Part shown: piece after piece, positions 4,296-45,098 of the stretch
How positions within the stretch are numbered: the first letter of the stretch is position 1
Layout of the letters: each line of letters opens with the position of its first letter
Source: Pseudomonadota bacterium
GTDB taxonomy: Bacteria > Pseudomonadota > Gammaproteobacteria > Acidiferrobacterales > Acidiferrobacteraceae
NCBI GenBank assembly: GCA_021819245.1
Contig: JAKARI010000007.1
Location: 5,525 to 69,524 of the forward strand
Length of the DNA: 64,000 nucleotides
Direction of reading: 5' to 3'
The notes under the pieces: generated by a model
What the model was told of the DNA's origin: nothing
The model's database searches: none
Seen by the model: only the letters and a program-made list of their open reading frames with translations
Program-made: the position numbers and the translations under genes

Positions 4296-4652
4296 ATGGT
4301 CATGACCGCTAATGAACGCCTGCAACAGATTCATGAACTGATGGCCCGCCTCAAAGAGACGTACCCTGCGGAGATCAATGCCTTTCTGGGCTTCATGGGC
4401 AAGACGGAAGACAACCCGGCCCTGAGCCGGGCCCAGAAGGAACTGATCGATGTCGCCCTCTCGGTGGCCGCCCAGTGCGAGTGGTGCATCGCCCTGCATT
4501 GCAAAGGCGCCGTCGAGGCCGGCGCCAGCCGCGACGAAATCATGAGTGCGGCCTTCCAGGCGGTGCTCATGCACGGCGGGCCGGCGCTCATGTATCTCGT
4601 TCCTCTGACTCAGACCCTCGATGAACTGCTGCCGGAGACACGCCATGGATAA
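4296..4652 (+). CDS. carboxymuconolactone decarboxylase-family protein with AhpD-type redox signature
   Basis: 118 aa. KELIDVALSVAAQCEWCIALH matches E-X11-C-X-X-C-X3-H exactly. AAGGAG upstream. Stop overlaps the E1-alpha start by 8 nt. Confidence 0.75.
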   Translation: MVMTANERLQQIHELMARLKETYPAEINAFLGFMGKTEDNPALSRAQKELIDVALSVAAQCEWCIALHCKGAVEAGASRDEIMSAAFQAVLMHGGPALMYLVPLTQTLDELLPETRHG

Positions 4653-5709
4653 CACCCACATGACGGGCCTGTTGCGGGACATGCTGCGCGCCCGGGCCTT
4701 TGAGGAGGCCGCCGCACAAAGCTATGCGCAAGGCGAAATCGTCGGCTTCCTGCACCTCTACCCGGGGGAGGAGGCGGTCGCGGTCGGTGTCCTGCACGCG
4801 GCCGAGCCCGGGGACTACATCGTCAGCACCTACCGCGAGCATGTCCATGCCCTGGTGCGAGGGATCCCCGCGCGGGCCATCATGGCGGAGCTCTATGGCA
4901 AAAAAACGGGCGTAAGCGCCGGCATGGGGGGCTCCATGCACATTTTCGACCGGGAGCGGCGCTTTTTAGGCGGCTACGCCATCGTCGGCGAGACCCTTCC
5001 GATCGCCCTTGGGGCCGCCTATGCCGTCGCCTACCGGCGGCTGCCGGAGGCCGTGCTGTGTTTCTTCGGCGATGGCGCGGTGAATCAGGGGACGTTTCAC
5101 GAAAGCCTGAACATGGCCGCCCTCTGGAGGCTCCCCATACTCTTCGTCTGTGAGAATAACCATTACCAGATCGGCACGGAGATCCACCGTCACTCCGCGA
5201 TCACGGACGTCTACAAGCGCGCGTGCGGCTATGGAATCCCGGCCGAACAGGCCGACGGCATGGATGTCCTTGCGGTCCATGCCGCAGCCAGGCGCTTATT
5301 GGATCGGGTCCGCGGCGGCGATGGTCCCCAGTTTCTCGAACTCTCCACCTATCGCTTCCGGGGCCACTCCATGGCCGATCCGGGGACTTATCGCCCGCAG
5401 GCCGAGGTCAAGGCCCACGAGGCGGCCGATCCCATCGCCGCCGCCATTCACGAAATCAGCCTGAGCTATCCCAGCCGGGCGGAACTTGCCGCCTCCGATC
5501 GGGACAGCCTGAAACGCTTCGCGGACCACTGTTGCCAAGGCGGTCATCTGGACGATGCCGCCCTCAAACGCCTGCAGGCGGAGGTCCAGGCCGAAATCGA
5601 TGATGCCGTTCGCCACGCCCGGGAAAGCCCCGCCCCCACGCTGGACGATGCCTGGGATGCGCTCTTGCGCAACCGTCGCTTCGAAACTTTGCTGGAGAAT
5701 CTCCCATGA
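4645..5709 (+). CDS. pdhA: 2-oxoacid (pyruvate/acetoin-type) dehydrogenase E1 alpha subunit
   Basis: TPP-binding region FFGDGAVNQGTFHESLNMAALWRLPILFVCENNHY. GFLHLYPGEEA near the N-terminus. Start uncertain (ATG 4621, 4645 or about 4660). Confidence 0.85.
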   Translation: MDNTHMTGLLRDMLRARAFEEAAAQSYAQGEIVGFLHLYPGEEAVAVGVLHAAEPGDYIVSTYREHVHALVRGIPARAIMAELYGKKTGVSAGMGGSMHIFDRERRFLGGYAIVGETLPIALGAAYAVAYRRLPEAVLCFFGDGAVNQGTFHESLNMAALWRLPILFVCENNHYQIGTEIHRHSAITDVYKRACGYGIPAEQADGMDVLAVHAAARRLLDRVRGGDGPQFLELSTYRFRGHSMADPGTYRPQAEVKAHEAADPIAAAIHEISLSYPSRAELAASDRDSLKRFADHCCQGGHLDDAALKRLQAEVQAEIDDAVRHARESPAPTLDDAWDALLRNRRFETLLENLP

Positions 5710-11181: not shown

Positions 11182-12498
11182 ATGAGCACGGAAATCACAC
11201 ACGCCATCGCCCGGGACATTCTGGATTCGCGCGGCACTCCCACCGTTGACGTCGCGATTCTTCTCGCCGGCGGCCGGCGTGCCCGGGCCACCGTACCGTC
11301 CGGTGCGTCAACGGGCAGCCAAGAAGCCGTCGCCTTACGCGACGGCGACCCCGGACATTTCGGCGGCACAGGGGTACTGCGGGCGATTCGCAACATAACC
11401 GACATCCTAGGGCCGAATCTCCAGGATCCGGACGCCCGGAACCGGAAAGCCATAGACGACGCAGTAATCCGAACGGATGGAACCGACAACAAAAGCCGCC
11501 TGGGGGCCAATGCGATTCTCGGCGTGTCGATGGCCTGCGCCAAAGCGGCCGCGGACGCGTCCAATCTGCCTGTGTATGCCTACCGGGGAGGGCCCGGCCC
11601 AACCCGGCTCCCGATCCCGTGTTTCAATGTGCTCAATGGCGGCGTCCATGCCCATCGGCAGGGGGCCGATTTTCAGGAATGCCGGCAGGTCCCCTATGGG
11701 GCCGGGGGCTTTCGTGAGGCCCTGAACTGGGGGACCGAGGTCTCCCATGCCCTTCGAGCCGAACCCCTGGCCAGACACCTTTCCGTGGGCGTCGGTGACG
11801 AGGGCGGGTTCGCCCCCGCCGTCGGGTCCAATCAGCAATCCTATGATCTTCCGGCGGCCGCCCTATCCCGTGCCGGTCTCACCCCGGGCAAGGGCTGCGG
11901 AATCGCTATCGATGCCGCCTCTTCGGGGTGTTTCAAGGGGGGCGCATGCCGCCTGCGCACGGAGGGGCGGGCGCTTACGAACGCGGACATGGTCACCGAC
12001 TACGAGGAGATGGTCCGGAACGGCCCGGCGGTGCTGCGGGAGGATGGGCTTTCCGAGGACGACCGGAATGGTTGGAGACATCTGAACGCGGCGCTCGGCG
12101 CCTCGATAGAGCTGGCAGGTGGTGATAGTTTCTGTACCCACCCCCGGATCATGGCCCGGGGCATCCGCGACAATATCGCCAACGCGGTCCTCATCACGCG
12201 CAATCAGATCGGGACCGTCTCGGAAACCCTGGCGGCCGCGCGCCTGACGCAATGTCATCATGGGGCGTCTGCGTCTCGCGCCGCTTTGGAGAGACGACAG
12301 ACGACTTCATCGCCGATCTCGCCGTGGCCCTGGATTGTGGCCCCATCAAGGCCGGCGCCCCGGCCAGGGGGGGGACGAGTCGCCAAATATAACCCGCTTC
12401 TCCGCATCGAAGAGCAACTCGGCACCGCAGCAGGCTGCGCGGGAAGACCGGCCTGTGTTCGCCCTGTACGCACGCCATTGGGAGGTCACTCATCATGA
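11182..12498 (+). pseudogene. enolase paralog, degenerate and frame-disrupted
   Basis: N-terminus is clearly enolase (ILDSRGTPTVDV, PSGASTGSQEAVALRDGD, VGDEGGFAP). The SHRSGET..IKTG block is only readable in another frame (about 12252-12375: [33 protein letters not shown]). It returns to frame at a G8 run ([16 protein letters not shown]). Catalytic residues are replaced. See finding. Confidence 0.7.
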
Positions 12499-17075: not shown

Positions 17076-18341
17076 TCATCGCGCATGATGCAATTCCTGG
17101 CCGAGCATCTCCGGGGTCACGACCACCACACCCCCCGGCGTCACATGGTAGCGGCGCGCGTCCTCCTCATCATCCCATCCTATGATGCTGCCCTCAGGTA
17201 TGCGGCACCCCTTGTCGATGATCGCGCGTCGGATACGGCAATAACGGCCGATGTCGCCACTGCCCATGAGCACAGAATCCTCCACCTCGGCGTAGGAGTG
17301 CACATGCATCGCCGAAAACAGCAACGAGTGGCGGATGCTGGCCCCGGAGATCACGCAACCCCCGGACACCATGGAATCAACCGCCATGCCCCGGCGGCCG
17401 TCATCATCATCGAACACGAACTTGGCCGGCGGATGCTGTTCCTGATAGGTCCATATGGGCCAGGCGGTATCGTACAGGTTGAGCTCCGGGGTCACGCCGA
17501 TCAGCTCCATGTTGGCCTCCCAGTAGGCATCGAGCGTCCCGACGTCCCGCCAATAGGCCGACTGGGCACCGCCGTCGCCCGAGAAGGCATAGGCCATGAC
17601 CCGGTAACGCCCTATGACCCCGGGGATCACGTTATGCCCGAAATCGTGGCGCGAGGCGCGGGTATCGGCATCCTTGACCAGCTGCTCATAAAGAAAGGGG
17701 GCGCTAAACACATAAATGCCCATGGACGCCAACGTCGTGCGCCCACCCGGGACCGTCGGCTCCGGATGGGCCGGCTTTTCGTCAAAGCGCACGATGCGCC
17801 CGGTATCATCGGTGGCCATCACCCCGAAATCGCTGGCGCGCTCGATCGGGACATGCACACAGCCCACGGTGAGATCCGCGCCGGTACGCGCGTGATAGGC
17901 GATCATCGGCCCGTAATCCATCTTGTAGACATGGTCGCCGGCCAGAATCAGCACATAATCCGGGTCATGATTGCGCACGATATCGAGGTTCTGATAGACC
18001 GCGTCGGCGGTGCCCGCATACCACGAGGATTCGATGCGCTGTTGCGCCGGCAAGAGCTCCACGAACTCCCCAAAGTCACCCCGCAACGTCCCCCAGCCCT
18101 TCTGAATATGATGAATGAGGGAGTGGGCCTTGTATTGGGTCAGCACCCCGATACGGCGAATCCCGGAGTTGACGCAGTTCGACAACGGGAAATCAATGAC
18201 GCGAAACTTGCCTCCAAACGGCACCGCCGGTTTCGCGCGCCACATGGTCAGGTGCTTTAACCGCGACCCGCGCCCGCCCGCAAGGACCAAGGCCAGGGTA
18301 TTGCGCGTGAGCTGATTTACGAATCTGGGTGCCTGATCCAT
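17076..18341 (-). CDS. glgC: glucose-1-phosphate adenylyltransferase
   Basis: 421 aa. LAGGRGSRLKHLT nucleotide loop, PFGGKFRVIDFPLSNC, left-handed beta-helix C-terminus. Confidence 0.92.
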   Translation of the reverse strand: MDQAPRFVNQLTRNTLALVLAGGRGSRLKHLTMWRAKPAVPFGGKFRVIDFPLSNCVNSGIRRIGVLTQYKAHSLIHHIQKGWGTLRGDFGEFVELLPAQQRIESSWYAGTADAVYQNLDIVRNHDPDYVLILAGDHVYKMDYGPMIAYHARTGADLTVGCVHVPIERASDFGVMATDDTGRIVRFDEKPAHPEPTVPGGRTTLASMGIYVFSAPFLYEQLVKDADTRASRHDFGHNVIPGVIGRYRVMAYAFSGDGGAQSAYWRDVGTLDAYWEANMELIGVTPELNLYDTAWPIWTYQEQHPPAKFVFDDDDGRRGMAVDSMVSGGCVISGASIRHSLLFSAMHVHSYAEVEDSVLMGSGDIGRYCRIRRAIIDKGCRIPEGSIIGWDDEEDARRYHVTPGGVVVVTPEMLGQELHHAR

Positions 18342-21288: not shown

Positions 21289-21432
21289 ACATGGCCCCCA
21301 TAAATGCCGCCTCCGCGGCCTCAGGCAACCGCACCCGGCCCCACCACGGCACGCCCCGCCTCTTTCATGGGTTACTATTGGGGGCGCGTGCTCCCAATCA
21401 CAACCGTTGCCATTCACAGGGGCCTTGCGATC

Positions 21433-22470
21433 ATGCCAGATCATGACCTGCTGCTTATAGCCGACATCGGCGGGACCAAGACCGATCTGCTCGTCCTATC
21501 GGCCCGCGCCGGGCTTGCCAAGCCGCTTGCGCGCGCACGCCTCAAAAGCCCCGAGTATCCTGACCTCAAGAGTCTGCTTCAGGCGTTTCTGGCAAGCGCG
21601 CCGCTGCCGGTCCGGCACGCCTGCCTCGCCGTCGCAGGCCCGGTCATAGACGGCCACGCCCATCTCACCAACCTCCCCTGGGTGGTCGACGGCGCGGCGC
21701 TAGGCAGCGAACTTAAGCTTGCCTCGGTCGATGTCCTGAACGATCTTGCGGCCATCGCCCACGGCGTTCCCGGCCTTGCGGCCGCCGATCTCAAGACCCT
21801 CAACACGGGCCGCGCGGCCCCAGGCGCCGCCAAGGCCGTGCTCGCCCCCGGGACCGGCCTGGGGGAGGCGTTTCTCGTGTGGGATGGGGCGCGTTACCGG
21901 CCGCAGCCCTCGGAGGGCGGCCATGCCGATTTCGCGCCGCCCTCCGCAGCCCTCTGTGGCCTCATCCCCTACCTGCAGGGACGCTATGACCATGTCAGCT
22001 ACGAACTGGTATGCTCAGGGATCGGCATCCCCAACCTCTATGACTTCTTTCGTGACCAGGACCCCGCACGCGAGACCCCGGGGTGCGCCGAGAGGCTCAA
22101 GGCGAGCGCGGACCGCACCCCGGCAATCATCGAGGCGGCCCTGGACCGCGCGACGCCCTGCCCGATCGCCCGCGCGGCGGTCGATGCCTTTCTCACCATA
22201 CTCGCCGCCGAGGCCGCCAACCTGGCCTTAAAGGTCCTGGCCCTGGGCGGGATCTACATAGGGGGCGGCATCCCGCCGCGGCTCTTGCCGATCCTAGACG
22301 AGCGCGCCTTCATGAACACATTCTGCGCCAAGGGGCGTTTTGCCACGCTCCTCGCGCAGATCCCGGTGCATGTGGTGGTAAACCCCGACGCCACCTTGAT
22401 GGGCATCGCCGCCTACGGATGGGCGCGCATGCGCGGCGAGATCTCAGGGTGCGCCACCAGGGTCTCGTAG
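21433..22470 (+). CDS. glk: glucokinase (intact copy)
   Basis: Start MPDHDLLLIADIGGTKTDL at 21433 (track ORF starts at 21304). EGGH motif present (PSEGGHADF). C-terminal 58 bp overlaps the glgA-derived sequence. Confidence 0.85.
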   Translation: MPDHDLLLIADIGGTKTDLLVLSARAGLAKPLARARLKSPEYPDLKSLLQAFLASAPLPVRHACLAVAGPVIDGHAHLTNLPWVVDGAALGSELKLASVDVLNDLAAIAHGVPGLAAADLKTLNTGRAAPGAAKAVLAPGTGLGEAFLVWDGARYRPQPSEGGHADFAPPSAALCGLIPYLQGRYDHVSYELVCSGIGIPNLYDFFRDQDPARETPGCAERLKASADRTPAIIEAALDRATPCPIARAAVDAFLTILAAEAANLALKVLALGGIYIGGGIPPRLLPILDERAFMNTFCAKGRFATLLAQIPVHVVVNPDATLMGIAAYGWARMRGEISGCATRVS

Positions 22471-22661
22471 AGTGCGCCATAGCGCCGCGCGCTCGCCGCC
22501 CACGAGAAGTCCCGCTCCATGCCGGCGCGCATGATGCGCGTCCAGCACGTGCGGTCGCGGTAACTCGCAAGGGCCCGCACTAGGGCCTCCCAGAGGGCGG
22601 CGCCGGTGGCCTCGGCAAACAGAAAACCGCTCCCCTCGCAGGAGCCGGCATCGACACCGCG
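21833..22661. repeat. direct repeat copy 1 (829 bp): glk 3' part plus glgA 3' end
   Basis: Hand alignment: 21833-21910 equals 23495-23572 and 22040-22661 equals 23573-24194, with no mismatch seen. Track ORF pairs 22083-22583/23616-24116 and 22310-22570/23843-24103 have identical translations. Confidence 0.95.
22413..22661 (-). pseudogene. glgA 3' fragment (last ~83 codons, no start)
   Basis: Identical to 23946-24194 of the intact glgA. In the glgA frame, a TGA lies immediately upstream of the repeat boundary. Confidence 0.85.
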
Positions 22662-22706
22662 TCAGCACACGACCAACGGAGGCGCTTCAATACGGCCCCT
22701 CGGCCT

Positions 22707-23147
22707 CTACAACACAGCCTGTAGCAAGGCGTGTTGGGGTGAAGAGAATGGATTGACCACTGTGACTCCCGCCCATGTAAAACCTTCCTGGAGATCCTCG
22801 GACAACAACAGGCGGCACCCTGATCGCGAAGCCGCTGACAAGATCACGGCGTCCCATACGCCGAGATGGTGGTCAACCGCAAGATCGGCCGCCACCAGCA
22901 TCACGTCGAGCGAGGTCTCGATGGTGGGAAAGGCGTCGCGCCAGCTTGAAAGCGCATGGCGCGCATCGGCCCGGGACTTCCCGACCTTGCGGACAAGGAC
23001 ATTGAAGAGCTCACCTAGGACCTGAACCGGTATGACGGCTGCCCCCGGCGGAAGACGAGCAATAAGGGCCAGGGCGGCGTCTCGCCGCATAACCCCATTT
23101 ACCCCTTCCGCGTAGGCGAGCACATTCGTGTCGAGCGCAACTCTCAC
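22707..23147 (-). CDS. vapC: PIN-domain toxin (VapC family)
   Basis: 146 aa. Acidic PIN residues in MRVALDTNVL, VLGELF, GVWDAVI and LLSEDLQ. ATGA overlap with the upstream antitoxin. Confidence 0.85.
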   Translation of the reverse strand: MRVALDTNVLAYAEGVNGVMRRDAALALIARLPPGAAVIPVQVLGELFNVLVRKVGKSRADARHALSSWRDAFPTIETSLDVMLVAADLAVDHHLGVWDAVILSAASRSGCRLLLSEDLQEGFTWAGVTVVNPFSSPQHALLQAVL

Positions 23148-23389
23148 CGATCATCCTCGTAGAGTTCCTCGCGCGTCCACCGTCCCGCATCACTCAGCGG
23201 CTGCTGTTCCAGGCGCGACAATAAGGCGGCGCGCGCGCTCATCGCAACATCGTCGTTCCGGCTTATGGGAATGAGCCGCGCAACGGGCTTGCCGTGACTC
23301 GTTACGACATACTGACGACCCTCGCGAACGTCACGCAGAAGGGCAGAAAACTGGCGATTGGCATCAGCTGCTGAAATGAACTTGTCCAT
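23144..23389 (-). CDS. Phd/YefM-type antitoxin
   Basis: MDKFISAADANRQFSALLRDVREGRQYVVTSHGKPVARLIP is a typical Phd/YefM N-terminus. An alternative ATG at 23407 adds 6 aa. Stop overlaps the vapC start. Confidence 0.8.
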   Translation of the reverse strand: MDKFISAADANRQFSALLRDVREGRQYVVTSHGKPVARLIPISRNDDVAMSARAALLSRLEQQPLSDAGRWTREELYEDDR

Positions 23390-23407
23390 ATCCCAAGACC
23401 GCCGCAT

Positions 23408-23426
23408 AGTAGTGATATCACCTACT
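23408..23426. promoter_or_regulatory. imperfect palindrome, putative antitoxin operator/promoter
   Basis: AGTAG-TGATATCA-(C)-CTACT, including the perfect 10-bp palindrome GTGATATCAC (23412-23421). It lies in the AT-richest patch of the locus, directly upstream of the antitoxin. Confidence 0.4.
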
Positions 23427-23494
23427 ATACTATCCCCCTCACAAAGCGCAAGCGCGACACCCGCAAGCGCCCCCTATCGAAGCCCACTCGCGCG

Positions 23495-24003
23495 AGGCCG
23501 TGCTCGCCCCCGGGACCGGCCTGGGGGAGGCGTTTCTCGTGTGGGATGGGGCGCGTTACCGGCCGCAGCCCTATGACTTCTTTCGTGACCAGGACCCCGC
23601 ACGCGAGACCCCGGGGTGCGCCGAGAGGCTCAAGGCGAGCGCGGACCGCACCCCGGCAATCATCGAGGCGGCCCTGGACCGCGCGACGCCCTGCCCGATC
23701 GCCCGCGCGGCGGTCGATGCCTTTCTCACCATACTCGCCGCCGAGGCCGCCAACCTGGCCTTAAAGGTCCTGGCCCTGGGCGGGATCTACATAGGGGGCG
23801 GCATCCCGCCGCGGCTCTTGCCGATCCTAGACGAGCGCGCCTTCATGAACACATTCTGCGCCAAGGGGCGTTTTGCCACGCTCCTCGCGCAGATCCCGGT
23901 GCATGTGGTGGTAAACCCCGACGCCACCTTGATGGGCATCGCCGCCTACGGATGGGCGCGCATGCGCGGCGAGATCTCAGGGTGCGCCACCAGGGTCTCG
24001 TAG
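23495..24003 (+). pseudogene. glk 3' fragment with in-frame 129-bp internal deletion
   Basis: Track ORF 23500-24003 (MLAPGTGLGEAFLVWDGARYRPQP|YDFFRDQDP...). It lacks the N-terminal ATP-binding half and the EGGH segment. Confidence 0.85.
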
Positions 24004-24194
24004 AGTGCGCCATAGCGCCGCGCGCTCGCCGCCCACGAGAAGTCCCGCTCCATGCCGGCGCGCATGATGCGCGTCCAGCACGTGCGGTCGCGGTAACTCG
24101 CAAGGGCCCGCACTAGGGCCTCCCAGAGGGCGGCGCCGGTGGCCTCGGCAAACAGAAAACCGCTCCCCTCGCAGGAGCCGGCATCGACACCGCG
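23495..24194. repeat. direct repeat copy 2 (700 bp) = copy 1 minus 129 bp
   Basis: See copy 1. It lacks the equivalent of 21911-22039. The junction has 2-nt CT microhomology. Confidence 0.95.
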
Positions 24195-25415
24195 GATGGT
24201 GTCGGCCAGTCCGCCGGTGGCGCGCGCAAGCGGCGGGGTGCCGTAGCGCTGGCTATACATCTGGTTGAGGCCGCACGGCTCGAAGCGCGACGGCATCAAA
24301 AAGATATCGGCGCCGGCCTCGATCTCGTGGGCGAGCCCCTCGTCGAATCCGACGCGCACCGCAATCGCCCCGCGATGGCGCCCGGCGAGCGCGCGCAGGG
24401 CGTCCTCGAGCGGGCGTTCCCCGGTGCCGAGCACGACGAGTTGGGCGCCCATCCCCGCCAACCGGTCGCCGACTTCGGCCACGAGATCTATGCCCTTTTG
24501 CCACGTGAGCCGCCCGACCATGCCAAAGAGCGGCCGTGTCGGATCGATGGTGAGATCGAAGCGCCGCTGCACGGCCTCCTTGTTGACACGCTTGCCAGTC
24601 AGGCTGTCGCGGTCGTAGCGGGCCGGAATCAGGGGGTCCGTGGCCGGGTCCCAGACACGGTCATCGATACCGTTGACGATCCCCACGAGGTGATCGCGGC
24701 GCCGCGCAAGCAGGCCGTGCAGGCCGCAGCCCTGGGCCTCATCCTGAATCTCGCGCGCATAGGTCGGGCTGACCGTAGTCAAGGCGTCCGCATAGTGCAG
24801 CCCGGCCTTCAAAAACGACAGCCGGCCATAGAACTCCGCGCCCTCCACACCGTAGACCCCCGGCGGCAGGCGCAGGGCCTCTACCGTCTCCGGCGCAAAC
24901 AGTCCCTGAAAGGCCAGATTGTGAATGGTCATGATCGACGGCGCCGGCCCGGGCAGGCCGTTTTTGAGCCACAGCGGCCCAAGACCCGCCTGCCAGTCGT
25001 GTCCATGAAAGAGATCCGGGCGCCACAAAAGCGGGGTCTCGTCACTCGCGAGTGTCGCGGCGATGCGGGCAAAGAGGCCGAAGCGCTGGGCGTTGTCCGG
25101 CCAATCGCGGCCCTCGCTGTCCTGATAGGGTCCGCCGTCGCGTCCAAAGAGCCATGGGGCATCGATGAGGTAGGTGGCGATCCCTGACGGCAAGGTCGCC
25201 TCGCGCACGAGCGCGCCCAGCACTGTAGCGCACGCCGGGGCCTCACCCACCTCCCGGCGGATGGACCGGTAGAAGGGCAGGCACACCCGCACATCGAGCC
25301 CCAGGGCGGCAAGGGACGGCGGCAGGGCCGCGACGACATCCGCAAGACCCCCGGTCTTGACCCATGGGGCGCACTCCGAGGCCACAAACAGCACCCGCAG
25401 CGGCCGACCCGCCAT
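23946..25415 (-). CDS. glgA: glycogen synthase (ADP-glucose type, GT5), intact copy
   Basis: Start MAGRPLRVLFVASECAPWVKTGGLADV at 25415 (track ORF extends to 25463). KTGGLADV signature. Confidence 0.9.
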   Translation of the reverse strand: MAGRPLRVLFVASECAPWVKTGGLADVVAALPPSLAALGLDVRVCLPFYRSIRREVGEAPACATVLGALVREATLPSGIATYLIDAPWLFGRDGGPYQDSEGRDWPDNAQRFGLFARIAATLASDETPLLWRPDLFHGHDWQAGLGPLWLKNGLPGPAPSIMTIHNLAFQGLFAPETVEALRLPPGVYGVEGAEFYGRLSFLKAGLHYADALTTVSPTYAREIQDEAQGCGLHGLLARRRDHLVGIVNGIDDRVWDPATDPLIPARYDRDSLTGKRVNKEAVQRRFDLTIDPTRPLFGMVGRLTWQKGIDLVAEVGDRLAGMGAQLVVLGTGERPLEDALRALAGRHRGAIAVRVGFDEGLAHEIEAGADIFLMPSRFEPCGLNQMYSQRYGTPPLARATGGLADTIRGVDAGSCEGSGFLFAEATGAALWEALVRALASYRDRTCWTRIMRAGMERDFSWAASARRYGALYETLVAHPEISPRMRAHP

Positions 25416-42560: not shown

Positions 42561-44978
42561 TCAGTGCGTGCGTATGGCGTTTGCCTCGGTTTCCCCTTCG
42601 CGCGACTTGCCACCCTCCGGGGTATCGGCCAGGGGCTTTGGCATGCGCTCGAGCGCAATCTCCAGCACCTGATCGATCCAGCGCAACGGCTTGATATCCA
42701 GGGATTCCTGGATATTTTTAGGCAGCTCGACCAGATCCTTGCGATTCTCCTCGGGAATGATCACGGTCTTGATGCCGCCGCGGTGCGCCGCAAGGAGCTT
42801 TTCCTTCAGGCCGCCTATCGGCAAAACCTCGCCGCGCAGCGTAATCTCGCCGGTCATTGCCACATCGGCGCGCACCGGGATACCCGTCAACACCGAGACC
42901 ATGGCGGTGCACATCCCGATCCCGGCACTCGGCCCGTCCTTGGGTGTTGCCCCCTCCGGGACATGGAGATGGAAATCATGCTTCTGATAGAAATCCTCCG
43001 GAATCCCCAGGGAAGCGGCACGCGACCGCACCACGCTCATGGCCGCCTGGATCGACTCCTGCATCACGTCGCCCAGCTTGCCGGTGATGGTGAGCTTGCC
43101 CTTGCCCGGCAAGAGCGCGCTCTCGATGGTCAGCAGCTCGCCGCCCACCTCGGTCCACGCAAGTCCCGTGACTTGGCCCACCTGATTGCTCTGCTCGGCC
43201 ATGCCATAGCGGAAGTGGCGCACCCCGAGATACTTGTCGAGGTTCTTCGCGCTTACCGAGACGTGGTCGCGCTTTTTGTTCAACAGAAGCTCGCGCGCCA
43301 CCTTGCGCGAGATCTTGGCGATCTCGCGCTCGAGATTGCGCACCCCGGCCTCGCGCGTGTAATAGCGCACGATATCGCGCACCGCGCTCTCCGAGATCTG
43401 CAGCTCACCGGTCTTTAGGCCATTGTTCGTTTTCTGTTTTTCGACCAGATAACGCATGGCGATATTGATCTTTTCGTCTTCCGTGTACCCCGACAGGCGA
43501 ATGACCTCCATGCGGTCCAACAGCGGCCCGGGGATGTTCAGGCTGTTGGATGTTGCCACGAACATCACATCCGATAGGTCGTAATCCACCTCGAGATAGT
43601 GATCATTGAAGGCGTGATTCTGCTCCGGGTCCAGGACCTCGAGCAGCGCCGACGACGGATCGCCACGGAAGTCCATGGCCATCTTGTCGACCTCGTCTAG
43701 CATGAACAGCGGATTGCGGGTCTTGGCCTTGGCCATGTTCTGAATGATCTTGCCCGGCAGGGATCCGATATAGGTCCGCCGGTGGCCGCGTATCTCCGCC
43801 TCGTCGCGCACCCCGCCCAGCGACATGCGGATGAACTTGCGATTCGTGGCGCGCGCGATCGACTGCCCAAGCGAGGTCTTGCCGACCCCAGGCGGCCCCA
43901 CGAGACACAGTATCGGGCCCTTCAACTTGTTCACCCGCTGCTGGACCGCAAGATACTCGATGATGCGCTCCTTGACCTTCTCGAGCCCGTAATGATCGGC
44001 CTCGAGCATGCGCTCGGCCTCCGCCAGGTCCTTGCGGATCTTGCTGTGCTTCTTCCAGGGCACCGCGAGCAGCCAGTCGATATAATTGCGCACAACGGTG
44101 GCCTCTGCGGCCATCGGCGACATCATCTTGAGCTTGGCGAGTTCCGCCTGCGCCTTCTCGCGGGCCTCCTTGGGCATGCCCGCGCTCTTGATCTTCTGCG
44201 CAAGCTCCTCGGCCTCGTTGGGGGTGTCCTCGAGATCGCCGAGCTCCTTTTGAATCGCCTTCATCTGCTCGTTTAGGTAGTACTCGCGCTGGCTCTTCTC
44301 CATCTGCCGCTTGACCCGGCCGCGTATGCGCTTTTCGACCTGCAGGAGGTCGATCTCGGACTCCATGACGCCAAGAATATGCTCGAGCCGCGCGCGCACG
44401 TTCAGCATCTCGAGAATCTGCTGCTTTTCCTCGATCTTCAAACTCAAATGGGCGGTCACGGTATCGGCCAGACGCCCGGGGTCATCGATCCCGGCAAGCG
44501 ATGTCAGGATCTCGGGCGGGATCTTCATGTTGAGCTTTACATACTGGTCGAACTCGTTGAGCACCGAACGCATGAGGGCCTCGCCCTCCTTGTCGTTCAG
44601 GTCGTCGCTTGCGAGCCTGCGGATCTCGGCGGAAAATGTCTCGTCGGTCTCGACGAAGCGCGTCACCTCGGCGCGTTGCTCCCCCTCGACCAAGACCTTG
44701 ACCGTGCCATCCGGAAGCTTTAAGAGCTGAAGGATATTGGCGACCGTGCCGATGACATGGATGGCCCCCGGTGCCGGATCATCGTCCGATGCGCTCTTTT
44801 GGGCCACCAGCATGATCTGCTTGCCCCCTTCCATGGCCCGCTCCAGGGCCTTGATGGACTTCTTGCGGCCCACGAATAACGGAATCACCATGTGCGGGAA
44901 CACAACCACGTCCCGCAACGGCAATACCGGTATGGCGGCGGGGTCCGGCGCTTGTGACAAATGCGTTTCTTCAGTCAT
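42561..44978 (-). CDS. lon: ATP-dependent Lon protease
   Basis: Start MTEETHLSQ at 44978. Walker [10 protein letters not shown]. Protease Ser in PKDGPSAG. Confidence 0.95.
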
Positions 44979-45098
44979 GGCTGCCCTCGCGACGTTACGC
45001 GCCGAATAGAAATGCGCCCCTTGAGAGACAGGGGCATGCAAGAGTACATGCGCCCGAGCGGTCCGGAAATCAAGCCCGGCGGCGGCCGCGCGGCCTTG

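Follow-up and report, generated by a model that had tools for sequence, protein, structure and literature searches.

Structure of the glk/glgA junction

The stretch of DNA analysed here (the window) comprises 64,000 nt of contig JAKARI010000007.1 (positions 5,525 to 69,524; assembly GCA_021819245.1) from a member of the Acidiferrobacteraceae, and all coordinates given below refer to this window as a whole. It represents core chromosome. At the junction of glk and glgA, encoding glucokinase and glycogen synthase, the window holds a direct duplication of that same junction, with a toxin–antitoxin (TA) operon of lower GC content located exactly at the duplication joint. Read from left to right, the locus consists of intact glk, a fragment of glgA (glgA'), the TA insert, a fragment of glk (glk') and intact glgA (Table 1). 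The same layout, including the 833 bp insert, had been proposed in a preliminary description of the stretch, and is confirmed here by Pfam assignments and tblastn.

Exact extension of identity defines copy 1 of the direct repeat as 21833–22661 (829 bp) and copy 2 as 23495–24194 (700 bp). The copies align in two blocks, both 100% identical: 78 nt at an offset of 1662 (21833–21910 = 23495–23572), and 624 nt at an offset of 1533 (22038–22661 = 23571–24194). Within the window, the sole difference between them is a gap of 129 bp in copy 2, which corresponds to 43 codons, is in frame, and has a 2-nt microhomology (CT) at its joint. The earlier account of 829 and 700 bp repeats, free of mismatches and distinguished by one 129 bp deletion, is thus correct to the base. 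A repeat of such length and identity cannot have arisen by chance. As the 129 bp segment is conserved in Glk of a relative (L004, see below), it was lost from copy 2 rather than gained in copy 1.

Table 1 Features of the duplicated glk/glgA junction (window coordinates; a dot denotes features without strand)
Feature	Position	Strand	Description
Direct repeat copy 1	21833..22661	.	3' 638 nt of glk and 3' 249 nt of glgA, with the 58-nt gene overlap; exact extension, repeat finding
Segment unique to copy 1	21911..22039	.	129 bp, 43 conserved Glk codons; deleted in copy 2
Direct repeat copy 2	23495..24194	.	700 bp; deletion joint at 23571/23572
Joint J1 (glgA'/insert)	22661..22662	.	Equivalent point in intact glgA is 24194/24195
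Joint J2 (insert/glk')	23494..23495	.	Insert ends in CGCG
Insert	22662..23494	-	833 bp; type II TA operon (promoter/operator, phd, vapC) and unmatched tails
PIN-domain (VapC-type) toxin	22707..23147	-	146 aa; Pfam PIN PF01850, E = 4e-11, 44 bits vs. cut-off 23.6
Phd/YefM antitoxin	23144..23407	-	87 aa; Pfam PhdYeFM PF02604, E = 4e-11, 43 bits vs. cut-off 29.8
Candidate antitoxin operator	23406..23428	-	Inverted repeat ATAGTAG-N9-CTACTAT over the phd start codon; read from sequence and fold
glk, intact glucokinase	21367..22470	+	367 aa as called publicly; longest open reading frame from 21304; Pfam Glucokinase, E = 1e-94
glgA, intact glycogen synthase	23946..25415	-	489 aa as called; longest open reading frame to 25463; Pfam Glyco_transf_5 and Glycos_transf_1
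glgA' fragment	22413..22661	-	Last 82 codons and stop; identical to 23946-24194
glk' fragment, open reading frame	23500..24003	+	167 aa; Pfam Glucokinase profile positions 205-310

The intact genes are convergent and overlap by 58 nt, and each repeat copy holds the 3' ends of both. In a tblastn comparison, residues 424–505 of GlgA were matched at 100% identity at 22661–22416. The glk' reading frame comprises 168 aa in other strains, which carry an additional CGG after 23516. Selection for this reading frame was considered and rejected: the frame is kept by the 129-nt as well as the 3-nt indel, but this has a chance of ~1 in 9 and the shorter of the two falls within a CGG repeat, so that the pattern is not significant.

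The toxin–antitoxin insert

With a GC content of 0.605, the insert falls below both the repeat (0.694) and the window (0.656). The TA operon is bordered by tails of 46 nt (22662–22707) and 41 nt (23454–23494). The antitoxin gene, phd, is located upstream of vapC and overlaps the toxin start by 4 nt; its assignment agrees with the match of the protein to NCBIfam TIGR01552 (44.9 bits, cut-off 20.8). The acidic residues of the toxin (D6, E46, D99 and E117/D118) are present, as read from the sequence and from an alignment to PDB entry 8wmm. This entry, the CRISPR-associated PIN protein PcrIIC1, is the closest structure to the toxin (E = 4e-6) and is not a classical VapC. Moreover, the toxin scores 20.6 bits against the curated VapC subfamily TIGR00028 (Mtu_PIN_fam), where the cut-off is 73.6, and is not a member. 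Judged from its sequence, it counts as a PIN toxin in the wider sense, outside the TIGR00028 subfamily. Homologues of the PIN/Phd pair are abundant, with more than 7500 at E < 1e-10 in public data.

The inverted repeat at the start codon of phd is partly kept in relatives with 85% identity, and is plausibly the antitoxin operator. Comparison between strains revealed four single-nucleotide polymorphisms (SNPs) in vapC, all four synonymous, and two in phd, both conservative (S64T and R31H). Together with the intact residues, this pattern appears to fit a functional TA module. A gene for Lon protease is found in the window at 42561–45041.

Sites that vary between strains number 6 in the 833 bp of the TA cassette and ~41 in ~25 kb of flanking core genes (excluding a divergent tract in contig L092 described below), which amounts to a roughly four-fold higher density in the cassette. 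For contig L088 alone, 3 variants in 403 bp of cassette compare with 1 in 5218 bp (Fisher P = 0.0014). It should also be noted that a terminator-like hairpin leading into a T-run (GCTCCTGCGAGGGGAGC GGTTTTCTGT) is found within the glgA coding sequence on the minus strand, at 22629–22645 and 24162–24178. The duplicate lies 17 nt downstream of J1, right after vapC, and could terminate the TA transcript; the count of terminator-like hairpin/T-run matches is not above the expectation from shuffled sequence.

Occurrence among samples and assemblies

The exact VapC protein is encoded on 1221 bp megahit contigs from several ENA samples. Contigs L001–L003 correspond to window positions 22494–23711 and cross J1, J2 and the deletion joint; they differ from the window by 0–3 SNPs and by the CGG insertion after 23516. 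On the right side, contigs of the same species end at 24027 or 23571. On the left side, they carry the first 270 glk codons and end at 22178 (i.e. 22038 + 140). All three positions are the branch points expected of a de Bruijn graph with k = 141. An NCBI contig of a metagenome-assembled genome (MAG), L088, links unique glgA sequence to phd and vapC by way of the complete copy 2 with glk', and a further NCBI contig of 94,197 nt, apparently the window's own, encodes VapC, Glk' and Glk together. For this Acidiferrobacter-like species, the three novel joints are thus documented from at least eight samples or MAGs and at least two assemblers.

A difference between the repeat copies near 22635/24168 was predicted from the contig ends and then borne out. 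In sample ERZ27237364, a T is present at 24168 in intact glgA (L086) and a C at 22635 in the fragment joined to the insert (L003), and the sample therefore contains two distinct repeat copies. As the joints recur across samples and assemblers, a one-off misassembly is excluded. The assembly artefact that had been considered in the preliminary description is largely ruled out by these independent assemblies, and the duplication with its insert is genuinely part of the chromosome of an uncultured Acidiferrobacter-like gammaproteobacterium from an acid mine. An empty-site strain of the species was not seen among the sampled contigs, although short-read graphs could not reveal one: every empty-site k-mer is also contained in the occupied allele, which makes such graphs blind to partial empty sites and excised circles.

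Age of the duplication and related lineages

The sampled strains diverge by ~0.1–0.2% in the flanks and show six polymorphic sites in the cassette. Copies 1 and 2 have no differing positions in the window, and differ by one SNP and one indel (the CGG) in other strains. Divergence of this size between the copies fits a duplication older than the split of the sampled strains, with no need to invoke gene conversion. As all sampled strains have the structure and the copies have diverged in some of them, the event took place before the common ancestor of these strains. The event had initially been described as recent. On the scale of the species this holds, with relatives at ~80% aa identity lacking the structure, but it is nonetheless older than the common ancestor of the sampled strains.

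The nearest other lineages are Acidiferrobacter-like MAGs with 72–73% identity in Glk and ~80% in GlgA and Pgi, in which the gene order pgi-gnd-glk> <glgA-soxA-like-bax is kept. The glk/glgA junction of sister lineages, suggested at the outset as a point of comparison, is uninterrupted in L005 and L006; there, the genes are convergent and their stop codons overlap by 4–7 nt (L005:7008-7011, L006:1901-1907). The overlap of the intact genes in the window is longer (58 nt, 22413–22470), and Glk and GlgA therefore carry lineage-specific C-terminal extensions here.

A different, non-duplicative insertion of ~2.1 kb occupies the same junction in L004 (L004:4250-6291; JAKAXK010000039.1, "Proteobacteria bacterium YS1.bin20"). 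It carries a dienelactone hydrolase gene (4345–5034, Pfam E = 3e-52) and small open reading frames. The latter include a possible frameshifted PemK/MazF-like toxin with an upstream partner, which was not confirmed (E = 0.087 after manual frame repair). The C-terminal tails of Glk and GlgA are altered in L004. The glk/glgA junction may be a recurrent landing site.

Search for mobile-element features and cassette relatives

In agreement with the preliminary description, which had reported no transposase, integrase, attC or terminal inverted repeat, all tests for mobile-element features were negative. No transposase or integrase was found in the insert or among the window genes, no Rfam element in the insert, and the ends of the insert score no better for terminal inverted repeats than random segments do (P = 0.31). 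Judged by folding rather than by a dedicated attC model, the 46-nt 3' tail has no attC-like structure, being no more stable than shuffled sequence (z = -0.27), and repeat finding reported no inverted repeat at the insert ends. No tRNA gene lies within 18 kb of the site, the nearest ones in the window being located at 41.6–48.6 kb. With no attC-like fold and no integrase among the window genes, the insert does not qualify as an integron gene cassette. Neither can it be classified as an insertion sequence, a transposon or a miniature inverted-repeat transposable element, a 4-nt CGCG being the only feature that resembles a target-site duplication. It is not a tRNA-targeting genomic island, and its flanking repeats consist of glk/glgA sequence. 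A retro-copy (mRNA-derived) origin was likewise rejected, as the promoter/operator region ahead of the phd start codon is part of the insert.

Searches with the 833 bp insert, another check proposed at the outset, retrieved no copy bounded by mobile-element ends. There is no second copy of the cassette in the window, the best match among plasmids has just 71% nt identity, and no match was found in phages or viral contigs (0 matches). JGI metagenome contigs gave 0 matches to the exact operator pattern as well as to the pattern conserved in the subfamily. P0002 and P0003, which come closest to the cassette, are 88–89% identical at the aa level and ~85% at the nt level, and the stretch that they share with the insert is only 23453–22708, which reaches from 46 nt ahead of the start codon as far as the stop codon. 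In more distant relatives, too, only the operon core (~22706–23453) is shared, and the outer 46-nt and 41-nt tails have no match in any of the sequences searched. Since the tails are unmatched and homology ends at the operon core, the insert resembles an arbitrarily cut donor fragment rather than a cassette with defined ends, and its tails look like leftover donor flank.

Flanking direct repeats are absent from ~6 other contexts of the cassette subfamily for which both flanks are available, with the window serving as positive control. The duplication therefore belongs to one event and not to the cassette.

P0002 and P0003 themselves were ruled out as the donor, given that homology stops at the operon core and that they are located beside a tRNA-Ala island integration site. 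The relatives with 85% identity lie directly downstream of tRNA-Ala(GGC) (L094:5544-5619). In L097, L098 and L099, only the 3' part of the tRNA is left upstream of the TA pair, preceded by differing island genes (HTH_17/AlpA-like, AAA_25 and TrwC relaxase). The partial tRNA and the varied island genes thus indicate an att-type repeat at a tRNA-targeting hot spot, with the TA pair just outside. Further islets of the subfamily are found between coxM-like and coxD-like genes, alongside a DUF29 gene (L109:4759-6119; ENA ERZ25039522 contig_31775), and beside a fructoselysine kinase gene on pSymB of S. meliloti (L118:3996-4693). Both were devoid of mobile-element genes and flanking repeats.

Origin of the structure

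The structure is attributed, with moderate confidence, to a single illegitimate duplicative insertion: the joint of a tandem duplication captured a foreign TA fragment, and TA addiction was plausibly protective. The Phd/YefM–PIN operon would have been cut from its donor at arbitrary points, and the fragment joined, without homology or mobile-element machinery, between position 22661 in glgA and position 21833 in glk, 829 bp apart. As a result, the glk/glgA junction would be duplicated in tandem and the foreign fragment would occupy the novel joint. One accident of replication or repair would be the most economical route. Serial template switching from the chromosome to the donor, and back to an upstream position on the chromosome, may have achieved this, with a possible third short skip that left the 129 bp deletion at a distance of 78 nt. 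Equivalently, a fragment may have been captured when staggered or sister-chromatid breaks were joined end to end. From the joints we infer template switching or end-joining of this kind, with the deletion possibly in the same event. As the neighbours are convergent and overlapping, both genes are intact after the duplication and keep their native 3' regions, and the event was presumably harmless.

Several observations are in line with this scheme. The duplication is head-to-tail and its novel joint is without long homology, as is expected of template switching, and the identity of the chromosomal sequences at both breakpoints is not beyond chance. The 2-nt microhomology at the deletion joint, combined with its distance of 78 nt from J2, amounts to clustering of the template-switch kind. 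Tandem-duplication joints with 4–15 bp of microhomology have been attributed to template switching in bacteria (Slack et al. 2006, PMC1428787).

A number of points weigh against the proposed capture. Both J1 and J2 are unambiguous and free of overlap on the chromosomal side. Microhomology can be scored at the deletion joint, while scoring at J1 and J2 needs the donor flanks. The closeness of the deletion to J2 is weakly non-random (~1 in 8), and the deletion may be a separate later event. The end-joining version hinges on Ku/LigD or other end-joining functions in the genome. The point equivalent to J1 in intact glgA falls between the arms of a perfect 7-bp inverted repeat (CGACACC-GCG/GAT-GGTGTCG, the slash marking the point; P ~0.014 vs. 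random positions), and the left breakpoint of the 129 bp deletion lies inside a 6-bp inverted repeat. The hairpins at the breakpoints do not fold more stably than shuffled sequence; the J1 palindrome is therefore weak evidence and is not relied on. None of these three features (the J1 palindrome, the 6-bp inverted repeat and the proximity of the deletion to J2) is significant alone. Concerning the assemblies, phasing of the repeat rests on the 94-kb window contig and the SPAdes-type contig L088 only, and a free 1.5-kb circle plus an empty site would account for the k = 141 graphs just as well. Finally, with regard to addiction, a survey describes chromosomal TA systems, though often addictive on plasmids, as lacking long-term conservation of their neighbourhood (PMC13617665).

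The preliminary description had offered two models, Campbell-type integration of a circle and a tandem duplication with captured DNA. Both indeed fit and are inseparable by sequence, but the circle requires the same two illegitimate joints and shifts the origin back. It would measure ~1.5–1.7 kb, consist of the TA operon and a glk'/glgA' patch with the 129 bp deletion, and integrate by a single RecA crossover in the 624 bp segment. The topology is as expected, with direct repeats of the patch flanking the remainder of the circle, and if the crossover took place on the right-hand side of the deletion, the latter would end up in copy 2, as seen. The cycle that such a circle should produce, R2 -> insert -> R1 -> R2, is present in the de Bruijn graphs, and excision between 624 bp perfect repeats must happen at some rate. 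Conversely, the insert encodes the TA pair only, and a circle without replication or transfer gene would be a transient by-product at most. Its formation needs J1 and J2 too, which leaves the origin unexplained, and a patch 100% identical to the host points to the same clone, most simply to excision from an integrated copy. Integration of such a circle is thus unlikely to be the origin, and better describes excision or spread between clonemates. A further alternative would be that the chromosome has a single glk/glgA junction and that the assembler threaded a graph cycle (for example from a co-occurring small circle, or from the variant of another strain) into the contig. The integrated form and a circle with an empty site are indistinguishable in short-read graphs. 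Still, an artefact of this type is highly improbable: J1, J2 and the deletion joint are real in at least eight samples or MAGs, and a replicon-free 1.5-kb circle could not last across samples unless continually shed from an integrated copy. Moreover, L088 connects the unique 5' part of glgA via the whole of copy 2 to phd and vapC, and C on the insert-joined copy is set against T on the copy joined to unique glgA in one sample.

A two-step history was also considered, in which a plain tandem duplication of 21833–22661 (joint ...CACCGCG/AGGCC...) preceded the insertion of an 829 bp TA element at the joint, with a 4-bp CGCG target duplication. CGCG is common to the end of copy 1 (22658–22661) and the end of the insert (23491–23494), a 4-nt match with P ~0.007 (~0.7% chance) per comparison, and short target-site duplications are typical of transposition. 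However, four comparisons are possible, which brings the corrected chance to ~3%, and CGCG is common at 66–69% GC. The insert is without terminal inverted repeats (P = 0.31), there is no transposase in the insert or the window, and other copies of the subfamily are without defined ends. Insertion exactly at an existing duplication joint would furthermore be a coincidence, and this history is considered quite improbable.

Persistence of the duplication

Once formed by capture of the TA fragment, as favoured here, the duplication would be exposed to RecA recombination between the 624 bp identical segments, which would delete the TA pair and re-create the ancestral junction exactly. Deprived of the labile antitoxin, collapsed cells would succumb to the PIN toxin. 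Such addiction is plausible because the toxin gene is intact and constrained and no empty-site strain was seen, and it would plausibly explain why an unstable duplication is retained in every sampled strain.

Comparison with known systems

Orphan TA islets, located alone between core genes, are a recognised class (Hayes & Van Melderen 2011, as cited in PMC13617665), and the integration mechanisms of solitary TA modules "have remained poorly characterized" (PMC13617665). The locus described here shares with orphan type II islets the two-gene operon with its own promoter and palindromic candidate operator, the lower GC content, the location between housekeeping genes and the lack of mobile genes nearby. 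What is unusual is the preserved target duplication with the cassette at its joint. Unlike in other islets of the subfamily, the 3' ends of both neighbours are present in a perfect duplication of 700–829 bp. The paper on TA integration (PMC13617665) makes no mention of direct repeats or flanking duplications, and no description of such a footprint at TA islets was found in the limited literature searched. In its acidic residues, the upstream position of the antitoxin gene and the 4-nt overlap, the pair resembles VapBC-type pairs of PIN toxin and Phd/YefM antitoxin. It differs from classical VapBC in scoring far below the TIGR00028 cut-off and in having PcrIIC1 as the nearest structure, and its RNase activity is putative.

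Long-distance template-switching work gave rise to the models of fork stalling and template switching (FoSTeS) and microhomology-mediated break-induced replication (MMBIR). Similar to the duplications reported by Slack et al. (2006, PMC1428787), the structure at the glk/glgA junction is head-to-tail, has a joint without substantial homology and shows a second illegitimate joint close by. In contrast to them, the joint holds 833 bp of foreign functional DNA rather than 0–15 bp, the duplicated unit is <1 kb rather than 7–32 kb, and the duplication is natural and population-wide rather than laboratory-selected. Campbell integration likewise yields an insert flanked by direct repeats of the homology patch and reversible by RecA, but here there is no replicon, marker or transfer function, and the circle of ~1.5 kb would itself need two illegitimate joints.

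Superintegron TA cassettes are one example of TA systems that stabilise chromosomal segments. For an integrated element, TA-mediated stabilisation has been described with mosAT of SXT (Wozniak & Waldor 2009, as cited in PMC13617665). As in these systems, the TA pair at the glk/glgA junction is part of DNA that can be lost by recombination, and its loss would trigger post-segregational toxicity. Unlike in these systems, the unit to be protected would be the tandem duplication itself, free of further cargo, and its stabilisation is putative.

A general route independent of mobile elements may be envisaged, in which a free fragment is captured at the joint of a tandem duplication that arose by replication or repair, with the flanking genes kept intact, the TA pair locks the duplication in by killing RecA-collapsed cells, and the footprints decay in older islets. 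We regard this generalisation as distinctly doubtful; the locus represents a single event, whose mechanism we infer, with no second example among the ~6 other contexts of the subfamily. If true, decay of the duplicated gene fragments would explain the usual lack of a footprint at older islets, and the locus would be the first case showing the intermediate as well as the first natural addiction-stabilised duplication. Most islets are too old for a scar, which is kept here in the form of two clean illegitimate joints, the target duplication, the microhomology deletion and the donor tails. As a young, population-level case with many metagenomes, it makes the question of how TA islets enter chromosomes experimentally approachable, and it provides a concrete test case for TA addiction freezing a tandem duplication.

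Variation in neighbouring genes

The gene for enolase is intact in the window (11182–12495), in L089 and in L091, and split by a frameshift in L090 (L090:9684-10996; sample ERZ27237410), which may reflect a real pseudogene or an assembly error. In strain ERZ27237373 (L092), ~70 clustered differences are found in ~420 bp of the 3' part of glgC (window 17081–17499). In the same strain, glgC and malQ are separated by an additional GH57 gene (566 aa), and the genes further along also differ. The clustered differences and the extra gene thus point to a recombinant tract and to variation in gene content in the glycogen cluster of the species.

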